From the NCBI GenBank assembly GCA_965205975.1, contig OZ242195.1, positions 2,752,001 to 2,816,000 on the forward strand: 64,000 bases of DNA. Direction: 5' to 3'. A program made the position numbers and the translations under genes. The DNA comes from Candidatus Latescibacterota bacterium. Its GTDB lineage: Bacteria; Latescibacterota; UBA2968. The notes beneath the pieces are model-generated. The model had not been told where the DNA came from. It worked only from the letters and a program-made list of their open reading frames with translations, and searched no databases. Positions 44,605-63,061 of the stretch are shown here, one piece after another (the stretch's first letter is position 1; each line of letters opens with the position of its first letter).

Positions 44605-45570
44605 TTAGAGAATTTGTCGCTGTCTCTTTTCTAGGAACCATTTTGCAAAACTTTCAATACCTTCTTCAATATCCACTTTAGGAGTAAAATTATACAGTCT
44701 TTTAGCTTTTGAAATATCCGCATACGTTAGACAAACGTCACCGGGTTGTTCAGGATATTGATCAATAACGGCTTTACACTTCAACGCATCCTGAATTATT
44801 TCAAGAGCATAGCTCAACTTAACAGTTCTCGAGTTACCAAAATTGACGATCTCAAAAGAATTTGGATATTTGAGTGCTGTGGCCAGACCATCTACAATAT
44901 CAGAGATGTAAGTATAGTCTCGTTGGGTACTTCCATCACCAAACATGCGTATAGATTCATTTGATATCATTTGTCTTGCAAAAATATGAAATCCCATATC
45001 TGGACGTTGACGAGGTCCATAAACCGTAAAAAAACGGAAACAGGTAATAGGAATACCAAATAAATGATGATATGCATGGCAGATGAGCTCAACACTTCGT
45101 TTTGTGGCAGCATAAGGCGATATCGGTTTGTCTGCTGTATCTGTTTCTTGAAAAGGTACCTTATCAGAATTTCCATATACAGATGAAGATGATGCCACCA
45201 AAAGATTTTCAATTCCCAACTTGCGGCAAGTTTCGAGCACTGTGATAGTGCCACCAACATTGACATCTTCATAACTCAGGGGAGTTTCTAAAGATGCTCT
45301 TACACCTGCTCGAGCTGCCAGGTGGACTACTTTTTTGATTTTGTGATTCTCAAACAGAACTTCAAAAGCATCTCGATTTCGGATATCCCCTTCAACAAAA
45401 GTATAATTGGGAAGATTCAGAACTTTAGAAATATTATCTTGTTTTATTTTTCGCGAATAACTGTTATTTAAATCATCGAAGACTACGACTCTTTCCCCTG
45501 ACTCAAGTAGTTTTTCTGCCAGATGGGATCCGATAAAGCCAGCCCCTCCTGTAATAAGTACGCTCGACAT
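44605..45570 (-). CDS. NAD-dependent epimerase (UDP-glucuronate/HexNAcA 4-epimerase-like SDR)
   Basis: TGGAGFIG, HLAARAGVR, ASSSSVYG, YAATK, RFFTVYGP, RPDM motifs. Confidence 0.9.
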   Translation of the reverse strand: MSSVLITGGAGFIGSHLAEKLLESGERVVVFDDLNNSYSRKIKQDNISKVLNLPNYTFVEGDIRNRDAFEVLFENHKIKKVVHLAARAGVRASLETPLSYEDVNVGGTITVLETCRKLGIENLLVASSSSVYGNSDKVPFQETDTADKPISPYAATKRSVELICHAYHHLFGIPITCFRFFTVYGPRQRPDMGFHIFARQMISNESIRMFGDGSTQRDYTYISDIVDGLATALKYPNSFEIVNFGNSRTVKLSYALEIIQDALKCKAVIDQYPEQPGDVCLTYADISKAKRLYNFTPKVDIEEGIESFAKWFLEKRQRQIL

Positions 45571-45591
45571 CGCGTTTTCCTCCTTTCCGTG

Positions 45592-46938
45592 CTATAGTTT
45601 AAAGACGTGATCTTTCTTTCCAGATACAGCCTGCGTGGCATTGCGCGTATCGACAATACAGCGCGCGTGCTTGACTATCCATTCGTAGTCCCAATCGCTG
45701 TGATGCGTCACAATGACCACACAATGGGCTTCTGTTAAATGTTTTTTATTTAAAGAAGTACTCTTCAAGTCCAAACTTTCCGTCTGCAAGTGATCTACAA
45801 ACGGATCGCAATACGAGACTTTCGCCCCTTTCTCCTGAAGCATTTCTATAATATCCAATGCTGGTGACTCGCGAATATCGCGCACATCGGGTTTGTACGT
45901 CACGCCCAATATCAGGATGTTCGAGCCTTTCAAACACCGCTCGTGTTCGTTGAGTGCGTCGGTGATTTTATCGACCACATACCCTGGCATGCTGCGCGTC
46001 ACTTCGCTGGCCAATTCGATAAAGCGCGCATTGTAATTCAAGGTCTTCAGCTTCCAGGCCAGAAAGTGCGGATCAACCGGGATACAATGCCCGCCCAACC
46101 CAGGACCGGGATAAAATGGCATGAATCCAAACGGCTTGGTCGCTGCGGCATCGATTACTTCCCAAACATCCACTCCCAGGCGGTCACACATCAGGGCCAC
46201 TTCATTGACAAGACCGATATTTACACTGCGAAATGTATTTTCCAGCAACTTGGTCATTTCAGCAGCCTGAGTCGATGAGACTGATACGACTTCGCCGATC
46301 GATTGTCGGTAAAAATGTGTGCCTATTTCTGTGCAAGACGGGGTAATACCACCCACGACTTTGGGCGTGTTGGTGATGGTATAAACCCTGTTGCCCGGAT
46401 CGACGCGCTCTGGGGAAAATACCAGAAAAAAGTCTCGACCGACCTTCAAGCCACTTCCTTCGAGAAGGGGCAATACCAGTTCATGGGTCGTACCTGGATA
46501 CGTCGTGCTCTCCAAAATCACCAGTTGTCCACGGCGCAGTCGGTCTTTGATTGCATTACAGGCTTGTACAATAAATGAGACATCCGGGTCGCGTGCTTTA
46601 TTTAAGGGTGTGGGCACACATACCACGACTACATCGGCTTCATTGAGTGCGTTGCATTCTTGTGTTGCTGTCAATTTTCCTACAGTTTTAAGACTTGTCA
46701 CTTCAAATTCCGATACACCCTGCACATCGGACTTTCCCGATTCTACCAGATCTACTTTGCGCGCCGATGTATCGATTCCCGTGACGGAAAATCCCACCTT
46801 GCCCAATGCCACAGATAAAGGCAATCCCACATATCCTAATCCCATCACTGCCACCTGTGCCTCGTGTGACGCGATCTTCTCCTCCAGAATCTGTGTGGAA
46901 TCGACGCTTCCCCAGGGTAATCTTTCTGTCAGGGCCAT
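45592..46938 (-). CDS. UDP-N-acetylhexosamine 6-dehydrogenase (WbpA/WecC family)
   Basis: GLGYVG, CVPTP, ESTTYPG, SPER, KLLENTFR, GGHCIPVDP motifs. Confidence 0.92.
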   Translation of the reverse strand: MALTERLPWGSVDSTQILEEKIASHEAQVAVMGLGYVGLPLSVALGKVGFSVTGIDTSARKVDLVESGKSDVQGVSEFEVTSLKTVGKLTATQECNALNEADVVVVCVPTPLNKARDPDVSFIVQACNAIKDRLRRGQLVILESTTYPGTTHELVLPLLEGSGLKVGRDFFLVFSPERVDPGNRVYTITNTPKVVGGITPSCTEIGTHFYRQSIGEVVSVSSTQAAEMTKLLENTFRSVNIGLVNEVALMCDRLGVDVWEVIDAAATKPFGFMPFYPGPGLGGHCIPVDPHFLAWKLKTLNYNARFIELASEVTRSMPGYVVDKITDALNEHERCLKGSNILILGVTYKPDVRDIRESPALDIIEMLQEKGAKVSYCDPFVDHLQTESLDLKSTSLNKKHLTEAHCVVIVTHHSDWDYEWIVKHARCIVDTRNATQAVSGKKDHVFKL

Positions 46939-46983
46939 TGTGTCATCCTCCCATAGTAAATCTATTTGATTTTCAGGACAGGA

Positions 46984-48066
46984 TTAACTTTTTAATACAG
47001 CAACAATTCGCTCTGCGGTATTGCCGTCCCACAACTCGGGCAAGCGACCGAATTTATAACGCCCATTCAAAACAGATTCAGCCTCTGCAACAATGCGTTC
47101 GGGACAAACGCCCACCAGTGTATTCGTCCCAATATCTATCGTCTCTGGGCGTTCTGTATTCTCTCTAAGCGTCAAACACGGCACACCCAAAGCCGTTGTC
47201 TCTTCTTGCAATCCGCCAGAATCTGTCATCACACATATTGCATTCTTCTGAAGTTTCAAAGAATCGAGATAGCCCACCGGATCCATAAGTTTGATATGAT
47301 CCATCATCTCAAGCCTTTGCAAAAAACCGAATTGAGACAGGCGATTGCGGGTTCTCGGATGCAAAGGCCACGCAATTGAACATTTGAGGGCTTGCAACGC
47401 GGAGACAATGTCGGCCAACGTATCTGGACAATCGACATTTGAGGCGCGATGGAGGGTTAGAAAAACGTACTCTTGAACTGACAAACCGTGTATATCCAGG
47501 ATGCGGGATTCATCGGCTTTGGGAGATAGTAACATCAGGGAATCGATCATCACATTGCCCACAAAATGAATGCGGTGATCTTCTATGCCTTCGCGCCTCA
47601 GATTTTCACACGCCTGCTTCGAAGGCGCAAACAATAGATCAGATATGGCATCCACCACGATTCGATTGATCTCTTCGGGCATCGACCTATCCCAACTTCG
47701 CAACCCCGCCTCTATATGTCCAACGGGAATTTGCAATTTTGCTGCATCCATCGCACATGCCAGAGTGGAATTGACATCACCAACGACAAGAACCCAATCC
47801 GGCCTTTCCAATGACAAAACCTCCTCAAACCCCATCATGATCTGCGCTGTCTGATACGCGTGACTGCCCGACCCCACATTTAATTCATAATGAGGTATGG
47901 GAAGATTTAAGTCTCGAAAAAAAATCTCGGACATCCGATCATCGTAGTGCTGTCCCGTATGCACCAGAATCGGATCAAATAAATCGGGTACCTCAATCAG
48001 TTGATTCCACAGTGGGGCAACTTTCATAAAATTGGGCCGCGCACCCGCAACAAGGATAATTTTCAC
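46984..48066 (-). CDS. wecB: UDP-N-acetylglucosamine 2-epimerase (non-hydrolysing)
   Basis: GARPNFMK, HTGQHYD, HIEAGLRS, PEEINR, DSGGLQEE; GTG start with AAGGAG RBS. Confidence 0.93.
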   Translation of the reverse strand: MKIILVAGARPNFMKVAPLWNQLIEVPDLFDPILVHTGQHYDDRMSEIFFRDLNLPIPHYELNVGSGSHAYQTAQIMMGFEEVLSLERPDWVLVVGDVNSTLACAMDAAKLQIPVGHIEAGLRSWDRSMPEEINRIVVDAISDLLFAPSKQACENLRREGIEDHRIHFVGNVMIDSLMLLSPKADESRILDIHGLSVQEYVFLTLHRASNVDCPDTLADIVSALQALKCSIAWPLHPRTRNRLSQFGFLQRLEMMDHIKLMDPVGYLDSLKLQKNAICVMTDSGGLQEETTALGVPCLTLRENTERPETIDIGTNTLVGVCPERIVAEAESVLNGRYKFGRLPELWDGNTAERIVAVLKS

Positions 48067-62781: not shown

Positions 62782-62807
62782 ACGAGGTACTCCTCAGAAC
62801 AAAGATG

Positions 62808-62987
62808 TCACTCGGCGTGATCAAAATCGTCCCAATCGTCATCGTCATTGGGAAAGGGCAAGGGAGGAACAGCAATAGGAGTCGGAGAACAGCCATATTC
62901 AAAACTATCCGTCGTCTCATATGTGTGAATACCTCCCTCTTTATCCATTGTTCCATTAATCAAGGTCAACTTGTGCCGAGTCGTCAT
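62808..62987 (-). CDS. RiPP precursor peptide (SCIFF-like leader, single Cys, Pro/Asp-rich core)
   Basis: MTTRHKLTLINGTMDKEGG...YGCSPTPIAVPPLPFPNDDDDWDDFDHAE; AAGGAGG RBS; directly upstream of the rSAM gene. Confidence 0.8.
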   Translation of the reverse strand: MTTRHKLTLINGTMDKEGGIHTYETTDSFEYGCSPTPIAVPPLPFPNDDDDWDDFDHAE

Positions 62988-63045
62988 ATTATCCTCCTTC
63001 AATACAAAAATCTAAATGTCGTCACTGTCTTCGCTCCGTTTATAT

Positions 63046-63061
63046 TGCAAGATGCGTGCCA
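63046..63061 (-). promoter_or_regulatory. sigma54 -24/-12 promoter of the RiPP operon
   Basis: TGGCACGCATCTTGCA on the minus strand, about 60 bp upstream of the precursor ATG. Confidence 0.85.

Follow-up and report, generated by a model that had tools for sequence, protein, structure and literature searches.

Glycosylation is rare among ribosomal natural products, i.e., peptides made by the ribosome and modified after translation (RiPPs). Glycocins possess a double-Gly leader and are exported by a peptidase-containing ABC transporter (PCAT), and their core is a Cys-rich, disulfide-bonded helix–loop–helix. The sugar of glycocins (sublancin with its enzyme SunS, thurandacin with ThuS, glycocin F and enterocin F4-9) is carried on Cys, Ser or Thr, and the characterised glycocin glycosyltransferases adopt the GT-A fold (PMC10373908). 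The subject here is a run of 17 genes in a 64,000-nt stretch of contig OZ242195.1 from a Candidatus Latescibacterota bacterium (this whole stretch is hereafter the window, and coordinates are positions in it). The locus is a mosaic of two cassettes, not one conserved pathway. Module R comprises an activator, the precursor A1, a radical S-adenosylmethionine (rSAM) enzyme with a RiPP recognition element (RRE) and an optional methyltransferase, and module G comprises a GT28-like domain, the glycosyltransferase GT4b, an array of double-Gly peptides (A2–A4 in the window) and the PCAT, HlyD and PpiC genes; both modules are common in Latescibacterota. The larger cassette, module G, looks like an undescribed system which glycosylates many fast-evolving secreted peptides. 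A literature search, on which supplements and subscription papers may still bear, found no description of it.

The locus resembles a glycocin cluster in that a precursor with a double-Gly leader stands together with a C39 PCAT. However, no GT-A/GT2 enzyme of the SunS type occurs among the 17 genes, whose only glycosyltransferases belong to the GT-B families PF00534 and PF04101. The cores of module G are acidic, hypervariable and not Cys-rich (A2 and A3 have one Cys each, and 15 of 70 cores have none), and the module has two or three glycosyltransferases, all GT-B, with arrays of several peptides. Module G works like a glycocin system yet fails membership by enzyme fold and core type. Cacaoidin, a lanthidin, is a RiPP with a disaccharide, its own sugar genes and three glycosyltransferases including the GT4 enzyme Cao24, an earlier case of a RiPP cluster in which a GT4 occurs together with sugar genes (PMC8068269). 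However, cacaoidin and NAI-112 are lanthipeptides with deoxysugars on Tyr or Trp, whereas module G exports via PCAT/HlyD and lacks further tailoring enzymes.

Fusions of an RRE to a glycosyltransferase were noted with RRE-Finder and predicted to act on RiPPs, in a passage that does not name their family (PMC7470986), and a later paper on such fusions names PF00535 (GT2) (PMC12710340). GT4b differs from these in its family, PF00534 with a C-terminal domain of its own, and the window member lacks an RRE whereas relatives possess one. Bacteroidales clusters of the TIGR04148/TIGR04157 type, e.g., BGC3, are predicted to combine an rSAM enzyme, a glycosyltransferase and GG-leader peptides, and so provide a bioinformatic precedent for the gene combination (section 3.2 of PMC10352776, where no product is reported for them). 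However, their rSAM and glycosyltransferase families are different ones (weak scores), and the rSAM enzyme and glycosyltransferases of the window are separable modules.

The window rSAM enzyme resembles the ranthipeptide maturases (SCIFF ScfB/CteB, PapB and QhpD) in its RRE-rSAM-SPASM architecture and in the small Cys-containing precursor directly upstream. Ranthipeptide cores carry several Cys or a Cys-X3-Asp motif. However, the window enzyme scores below all the equivalog cut-offs (259 of 425 for TIGR03974, 231 of 340 for NF047865 and 249 of 453 for TIGR03906) and is wired to a kinase/sigma-54 activator, and A1 has a single Cys, with no multi-Cys core and no conserved Asp/Glu four residues past that Cys. 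Retaining GT4 enzymes are also known from the GtfA/GtfB system, which adds GlcNAc to Ser/Thr of a secreted serine-rich-repeat polypeptide, to be extended by further glycosyltransferases; its substrates are large adhesins that leave the cell via accessory Sec, and the system is absent among the fold matches listed for GT4b. The markers of a lipopolysaccharide or exopolysaccharide cluster that were looked for, i.e., a flippase, a polymerase or a priming transferase, do not occur among the 17 genes.

Modular architecture of the locus

The 17 co-oriented genes reported in an earlier note on this DNA were all found, in the order claimed, as minus-strand open reading frames (ORFs). Library matches bear out the families it had assigned, the methyltransferase excepted, which lacks a Pfam or NCBIfam match: rSAM/SPASM with a weak PqqD match, a GT4+GT28-C fusion, GT4, Rce1/Abi, cNMP-C39-ABC, HlyD, a rotamase/TIGR04500-like protein, WecB (above cut-off), an NDP-sugar dehydrogenase and an SDR epimerase. 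The relatives of the locus belong to Candidatus Latescibacterota, with strong matches at 31 of 32 loci. Two sets of loci were compared, i.e., 33 R loci with a close rSAM homologue (37 matches minus 4 fragments) and 36 G loci (35 with GT4b, plus locus L157); the R tallies cover at most ~13 kb behind the rSAM gene, and less on short contigs.

Among these 36 G and 33 R loci, the two modules adjoin solely in the window, which counts once in each set. The synteny of glycosyltransferases with double-Gly precursors and export genes held up well, with the GT28-like domain at 34, GT4b at 35 and the PCAT at 34 of the 36 G loci, and HlyD and PpiC at 31 each, the misses being contig or region ends and a displaced copy (L024). 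For the rSAM gene, the loss of synteny that the earlier note had named as counting against its single pathway is what was found: the rSAM gene, A1, the small ORF, the methyltransferase, the dehydrogenase and the epimerase each occur at 1 of 36 G loci, namely the window. Conversely, the R loci contain the activator in 31 of 33 cases (both misses at contig edges), the methyltransferase in 14 and the small ORF in 10, and GT4b, GT28 and WecB in one, again the window. A close rSAM gene lies within 140 kb of GT4b for only 1 of 36 GT4b matches, the one in the window, several of the others being on short contigs.

In the genome itself, the close rSAM gene and GT4b are each present three times, at separate places. 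GT4b was found in 20 of the 20 other genomes of the genus, so that each of the 21 has one to four copies; this presence throughout an uncultured genus suggests that the products may matter to its ecology. Five of the 20 same-genus genomes (four single-contig and one two-contig, 97–99% complete) possess module G and no close rSAM gene. In genome G009, module G is split between L157 and L024, where GT4b lies ~35 kb off on the opposite strand with no peptide gene behind it.

The module borders are sharp breaks in DNA homology, with R homology reaching to ~60025 and G homology starting at ~59950; the junction between them (59945–60025) has no stable hairpin. Copies of gene ends stand beside the small ORF and A3. 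Behind the rSAM gene, a long hairpin and then a 68-nt repeat of that gene's 3′ end (79% identity with 61352–61419) form an apparent recombination scar next to the small ORF (61194–61337, minus strand), and ahead of A3 both the 3′ end of GT4b and the ribosome-binding region of A2 recur as duplicates. These duplications would fit shuffling via recombination. The WecB–dehydrogenase junction matches two loci (L151 and L154) of a second rSAM cluster type, which is discussed below. The locus also serves as a warning that a co-oriented, RiPP-like gene run in a single genome can be a shuffled mosaic, and that reading such a mosaic as a single pathway leads to the wrong molecule being predicted from the gene list.

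GT4b and its RRE-fused relatives

GT4b (55865–57268, minus strand) is a retaining GT-B enzyme with a family-specific C-terminal domain and is proposed to be the initiating peptide glycosyltransferase. Its model shows the GT-B fold (pLDDT 89.5), and R195, K200, E263 and E271 are invariant (E263-x7-E271). In the full model, the C-terminal domain consists of strands followed by three helices. As to whether this domain might have an RRE fold, the isolated domain modelled poorly (pLDDT 68), and with this poor model Foldseek returned no match at E ≤ 0.001 and the best VIA-align hit (Z 7.5) covered three helices only; a comparison with the Atlas yielded nothing usable.

A profile search of 1.84 billion representatives revealed relatives of 540–580 aa with ~90 extra N-terminal residues. 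This extra domain aligns with the RRE of the window rSAM enzyme (hhalign 95.3%, E 2e-8) and with residues 6–90 of PDB 5WGG (E 4e-13), and matches a ScfB-related model in 15 and a SCIFF maturase model in 9 of 32 members. Using hidden Markov models (HMMs) of the RRE and of the C-terminal domain built from 32 of the 149 representatives counted, 51 were found to possess the GT4b-type C-terminal domain, 38 of these 51 to have the RRE-like N-terminus as well, and 94 to have neither. In a 44-sequence tree the GT4b clade adjoins the RRE-fused family, with modest basal support. Across 168 genomes of the phylum, the GT4b family was found in 24, none of them with a fused RRE. At a locus from another Latescibacterota family (L142:764-5210), an ORF with an RRE-like N-terminus (judged by eye) on a GT9-looking, apparently frameshifted body is followed by a GT4b relative and then an ABC transporter.

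Binding of A2 by GT4b received weak support from a complex prediction, which scored 0.49 while the best of the 3 controls scored 0.00, with contact agreement of at least 26% and partner pLDDT of at least 38 across the runs. The mark used is attained by 116 of the 157 solved pairs and by 2 of the 215 mismatched ones; of those attaining it, however, only 18 solved pairs, along with both mismatches, score 0.60 or less. Within the RRE-GT4 family (P0077–P0155), the catalytic motif looks degenerate in some members, P0077 is a tandem double glycosyltransferase, and P0129 and P0113 are fused to a methyltransferase or an A24 peptidase.

Precursors of module G and the serine motif

When 3809 small ORFs (from the loci and the genome itself) were searched iteratively with an HMM of the leader, 70 precursors were recovered, all at GT4b loci, including 8 in the genome itself, which has none outside its GT4b loci. 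A leader-bearing gene stands directly behind GT4b at 34 of 35 GT4b loci, the exception being the displaced copy L024. Features of the leader are an Arg close to its start, a central Leu-Pro and a terminal GG, GA, DG or GQ. The window contains A2 (70 aa, 55591–55803), A3 (75 aa, 55237–55464) and A4 (122 aa, 54747–55115), all on the minus strand, of which A4 joins a leader of the A2/A3 family to a glycine-zipper core. The earlier note had described three double-Gly precursors, which is right for A2 with its canonical GG but not for A3 and A4, whose leaders end in GA and DG, respectively. An NCBIfam scan of 10 precursors matched no family and gave weak glycine-zipper matches only.

The hypervariable cores form 20 families, in which a motif of a hydrophobic residue followed by Ser-Glu was spotted by eye and tested afterwards. 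SE is the most enriched of the 400 dipeptides, occurring in 16 of 20 core families versus 5.9 expected (z 5.2; the second-ranked, PP, has z 3.6), and for D..S[ED] the count is 8 of 20 versus 0.77 expected, a level reached by none of 5000 shuffles. The full motif D/E-x-hydrophobic-S-D/E is carried by 57 of 70 cores, including A2, A3 and A4, and the residue at the serine position is Ser 69 times and Thr twice, against a background of 5.8% Ser in the long ORFs of the genome. The candidate acceptors are Ser46 and Ser64 of A2, Ser49 of A3 and Ser109 of A4. Cysteine is disfavoured as a general sugar acceptor, being absent from 15 of 70 cores, the A2 and A3 types aside, in which the one core Cys lies just past the leader. 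Some G precursors at L034 and L035 terminate in stretches of as many as seven cysteines beside acidic residues, which suggests metal binding.

Sugar genes and a second cluster type

The first gene of module G encodes a fusion (57361–59943, minus strand) of GT4n, an optional TIGR04063-like domain found at 16 of 36 G loci, with GT28c, the core GT28/GT1-like domain. WecB (46984–48066, minus strand), a non-hydrolysing UDP-GlcNAc 2-epimerase, co-occurs with GT4n, being present at 11 of 16 loci with GT4n versus 0 of 20 without it, several regions ending early. Counting a diverged GT4n of genome G020, GT4n and WecB are concordant in 19 of 21 genomes, and one chromosomal site exists in both states, with GT4n and WecB at L029 and L031 and with neither at L016, L018 and others. 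This co-occurrence suggests that the donor of GT4n is probably UDP-N-acetylmannosamine (UDP-ManNAc) or its uronic acid (UDP-ManNAcA), the genomes compared being kin rather than independent. The link that the earlier note drew between WecB and glycosylation is thus retained, in the form of a tie to the extra GT4 domain.

The same note proposed a dedicated pathway to N-acetylhexosaminuronic acid (HexNAcA), which does not agree with the distribution of the other two sugar genes. The UDP-HexNAc 6-dehydrogenase (45592–46938, minus strand) is an extra copy of a genus-wide gene, with an 82–95% homologue in 19 of the 20 other genus genomes, usually not near these clusters, and a fragment in the remaining one, and the HexNAcA pathway is therefore not dedicated. 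The enzyme is structurally nearest to Cap5O and to a UDP-ManNAcA dehydrogenase. The 4-epimerase of the SDR family (44605–45570, minus strand; 38% GC) has its nearest structures in 5U4Q and 6ZL6, both UDP-glucuronate 4-epimerases, and a 94% DNA match behind the R module L067. Both genes are window-specific additions to module G, not conserved parts of it.

A related GT4-GT28 fusion, WecB and dehydrogenase were also found within an unrelated rSAM peptide cluster of genomes G008 and G020, which suggests that the sugar cassette moves between peptide clusters. The window dehydrogenase groups with the WecB-adjacent copies of L151 and L154 in an unrooted comparison of 7 sequences; the WecB tree is poorly resolved. 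The second cluster type (L151–L152, ~1.4536–1.469 Mb of G008; L153–L154, ~4.434–4.453 Mb of G020; related L161 and L162) encodes a different rSAM enzyme of ~570–590 aa, a Cys-rich precursor with an acidic helical leader, an ABC/M1-peptidase permease, the GT4-GT28 fusion, an HExxH protease, a GT4, WecB and the dehydrogenase. A radical SAM-modified aminouronic glycopeptide is a more plausible product of this cluster type than of the window.

Module R

Module R is headed by an activator gene whose 3′ end lies in the window (63300–64000, minus strand); the intact gene extends past the window and encodes ~1600 aa with kinase, AAA, TPR and GAF domains, and a homologue combines kinase, AAA, TPR, GAF and sigma-54 domains. 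Its intrinsic terminator (63084–63109, minus strand, z −3.6) is followed by a sigma-54 −24/−12 promoter, claimed earlier and matching the consensus exactly at 63047–63061 on the minus strand. Sigma-54-like sites were found at 18 of 33 R loci when 330 nt were scanned. A1 (59 aa, 62808–62987, minus strand), the first precursor, belongs to a family distinct from A2–A4, with no conserved double-Gly, and a homologue was recovered at 32 of 33 R loci, L080 looking broken. Conserved features of A1 are one core Cys, a Val-Pro stretch seven residues later and an Asp-rich tail; the residues ahead of the Cys vary, some homologues lacking Gly, and no Ser or Thr is conserved. A1 is probably not a substrate of the PCAT.

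The rSAM enzyme (61351–62781, minus strand; SCIFF/PapB/QhpD-like) matches PDB 5WGG, presumably CteB, over its full length (E 3e-59), has the CX3CX2C and SPASM cysteines intact and qualifies as an RRE-rSAM-SPASM maturase. By analogy with these maturases, it most likely cross-links the single Cys of A1 as a thioether. The small ORF (77 aa, 60943–61176, minus strand), which matched no known family, is optional cargo of module R. The methyltransferase (59994–60926, minus strand) is a class I SAM enzyme assigned by features as Methyltransf_24-like (score 0.96; the family is on 16–42% of members in the top three clusters), with a weak structure match to an O-methyltransferase (E 0.005). It had been placed in the glycopeptide pathway, from which its distribution (14 of 33 R loci versus 1 of 36 G loci) removes it in favour of module R.

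Behind the rSAM gene, the 33 R loci carry nothing biosynthetic in 11 cases, sugar or glycosyltransferase genes in at least 6 and a different PCAT system in 2. In the latter (L060:1500-14000 and L076:1700-12500), module R is fused to another PCAT/HlyD/PpiC system with M16 peptidases; the precursors there are long and very acidic with a G-like leader, and no glycosyltransferase was seen at either locus. A distant R module, at L087 (G043), has azole-peptide-like cargo behind it, made up of ThiF, nitroreductase, YcaO and ABC genes.

Proposed pathway and alternative explanations

On balance, it is probable that module G glycosylates and exports A2–A4 while module R separately modifies A1, with R probably supplying the promoter here. 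In this scheme, a recent fusion of the two cassettes plus a sugar-gene tail would have formed the locus. The kinase/sigma-54 activator would drive A1 and the RRE-rSAM enzyme, and module G, in this copy, would probably borrow the sigma-54 promoter of R. GT4b would put the first sugar from a UDP donor, probably GlcNAc or glucose with retention, on the motif Ser of A2–A4, the GT28-like domain would add a second sugar, and GT4n, where present, would add ManNAc or ManNAcA made by WecB, with the dehydrogenase usually coming from another part of the chromosome. The leader would be cut off by the PCAT, which would export the products through HlyD, and the Abi and 2-TM (two-transmembrane-segment) proteins may confer immunity, as might befit a bacteriocin-like role. 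Duplication, together with recombination across the conserved leader and the DNA upstream of it, may diversify the cores.

A bolder extension is put forward tentatively, as distinctly less probable than this scheme. Module G would then represent a new class of glycosylated RiPPs, in which a GT-B family, directed either by an RRE or by a short serine sequon, assembles glycans of one to three sugars, including ManNAc(A), on libraries of hypervariable acidic peptides, and the sugar cassette would be portable, decorating the rSAM-cross-linked Cys-rich peptides of G008 and G020 as true radical SAM aminouronic glycopeptides. If true, a GT-B family with RRE fusions, a five-residue sequon and tolerance of many cores would constitute a new glycopeptide route and a possible engineering tool.

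Several observations weigh against peptide glycosylation by module G. GT4b itself has no RRE, the RRE HMM matches the rSAM enzyme alone among the window proteins, and a metagenome scan for the RRE-GT4 context yielded 79 loci with generic GT4s only. The motif is missing from 13 of 70 cores, was noticed before it was tested, and was counted over core families which may share ancestry. The related-leader peptides of the glycosyltransferase-free PCAT locus L076 keep the acidic helix with 10 Thr and 0 Ser, so the motif may be structural, and both such loci (L060 and L076) still keep the long leader. In addition, the WecB–GT4n link may reflect few independent events among kin, and GT4n is nearest to TIGR04063, a PEP-CTERM/exopolysaccharide-type model, below its cut-off. 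An alternative which is improbable but deserves weight is that the peptides exported by module G are class II-like bacteriocins or signal peptides without any modification, while the glycosyltransferases and WecB modify something else, e.g., the producer's envelope or receptor, as immunity, or a small molecule. The glycine-zipper cores with Abi and 2-TM genes do resemble unmodified bacteriocin loci, GT4n and GT28c are nearest to polysaccharide or small-molecule glycosyltransferase models, similar leaders occur with a PCAT and no glycosyltransferase at L060 and L076, and GT4b is without an RRE. However, flippase, polymerase and priming transferase families are absent from the recurring genes of the G loci (single unclustered ORFs being partly annotated), most of the GT4b family carries a fused RRE, the Ser motif is enriched, and GT4b nearly always immediately precedes the peptide genes.

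The product envisaged in the earlier note, one peptide with both an rSAM cross-link and an aminouronic-acid glycan, possibly methylated, is very unlikely. In its favour, a single sigma-54 site precedes the whole co-oriented run, the R/G junction lacks a hairpin, A2 and A3 carry a Cys just past the leader, and 16 of 21 genus genomes hold a close rSAM gene somewhere, so that action in trans would be possible. However, the arrangement occurs once among the 36 G and 33 R loci, five nearly complete genomes have G with no close rSAM gene, 15 of 70 cores lack Cys, and the A1 and G leaders look unrelated by eye. The window rSAM enzyme is also 87–94% identical to copies without G neighbours, thus showing no sign of adaptation to new substrates. 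A marginally less improbable link, still quite unlikely, would make cross-linked A1, or the process it signals, the target of the sugar genes behind the rSAM gene. Glycosyltransferase or nucleotide-sugar genes do stand there at the window, L056, L067, L073, L080 and the ~3.085 Mb copy of the genome itself, and at 5 of 12 distant R-type loci (L048, L050, L052, L053 and L089), where GT4 behind the rSAM gene keeps a looser link to glycosylation alive. However, these glycosyltransferases vary between loci, a third of the R loci (11 of 33) carry no tailoring cargo, A1 lacks both a conserved Ser/Thr and an export signal, and the remaining cargo is unrelated (YcaO, tyrosinase, S8 peptidase). Finally, it is highly unlikely that the R–G junction is an assembly chimera or a non-functional product of shuffling. 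Multi-copy modules at ~90% identity could mislead an assembler, and no junction-spanning piece occurs among the public contig matches listed; yet the genome is a single contig with all reading frames intact, window-specific stretches to either side of the junction were found unaltered in four runs from a single study, and independent R–cargo fusions exist in other genomes.

Transcription signals and remaining genes

Start codons were corrected via ribosome-binding sites to 62987 (A1), 61176 (small ORF), 55803 (A2), 55464 (A3) and 55115 (A4). The terminator claimed at the end of the run is real, an intrinsic terminator at 44531–44562 on the minus strand with its hairpin and U-tract at 44534–44562 (z −5.4). 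Within the run, strong hairpins lie at 61258–61337 (z −5.0) and 54676–54733 (z −4.5), so a single transcript for all 17 genes is no more than plausible. The latter, 3′ of the precursor array on the minus strand, may act as a stabiliser or attenuator. The sigma-54 consensus has 4 exact matches in the window, and 15 with at most one mismatch versus 5.6 expected; further exact sites lie at 20823–20837 (minus strand) and 33392–33406 (plus strand). A sigma-70 scan of the window gave 25 sites versus 27.3 expected, i.e., no excess, and no tRNA was found within or just outside the window.

Behind the precursors, all on the minus strand, follow the 2-TM protein (54297–54575; optional, 6 of 36 G loci), a candidate for immunity; the Abi/CPBP intramembrane protease (53355–54242; optional, 15 of 36), a candidate for immunity or processing; the PCAT (50337–53351), a 2x cNMP-C39 peptidase-ABC transporter with the catalytic Cys and His motifs present; the HlyD adaptor (48856–50238); and the PpiC/TIGR04500-like maturation protein (48080–48859), the last two assigned by library match. 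Directly behind the terminator of the run lies a second Abi/CPBP gene (43638–44352) with its own exact sigma-54 site at 44338–44352, and downstream of it are an integrase-AAA fusion (41847–43523) and a YdjM hydrolase.

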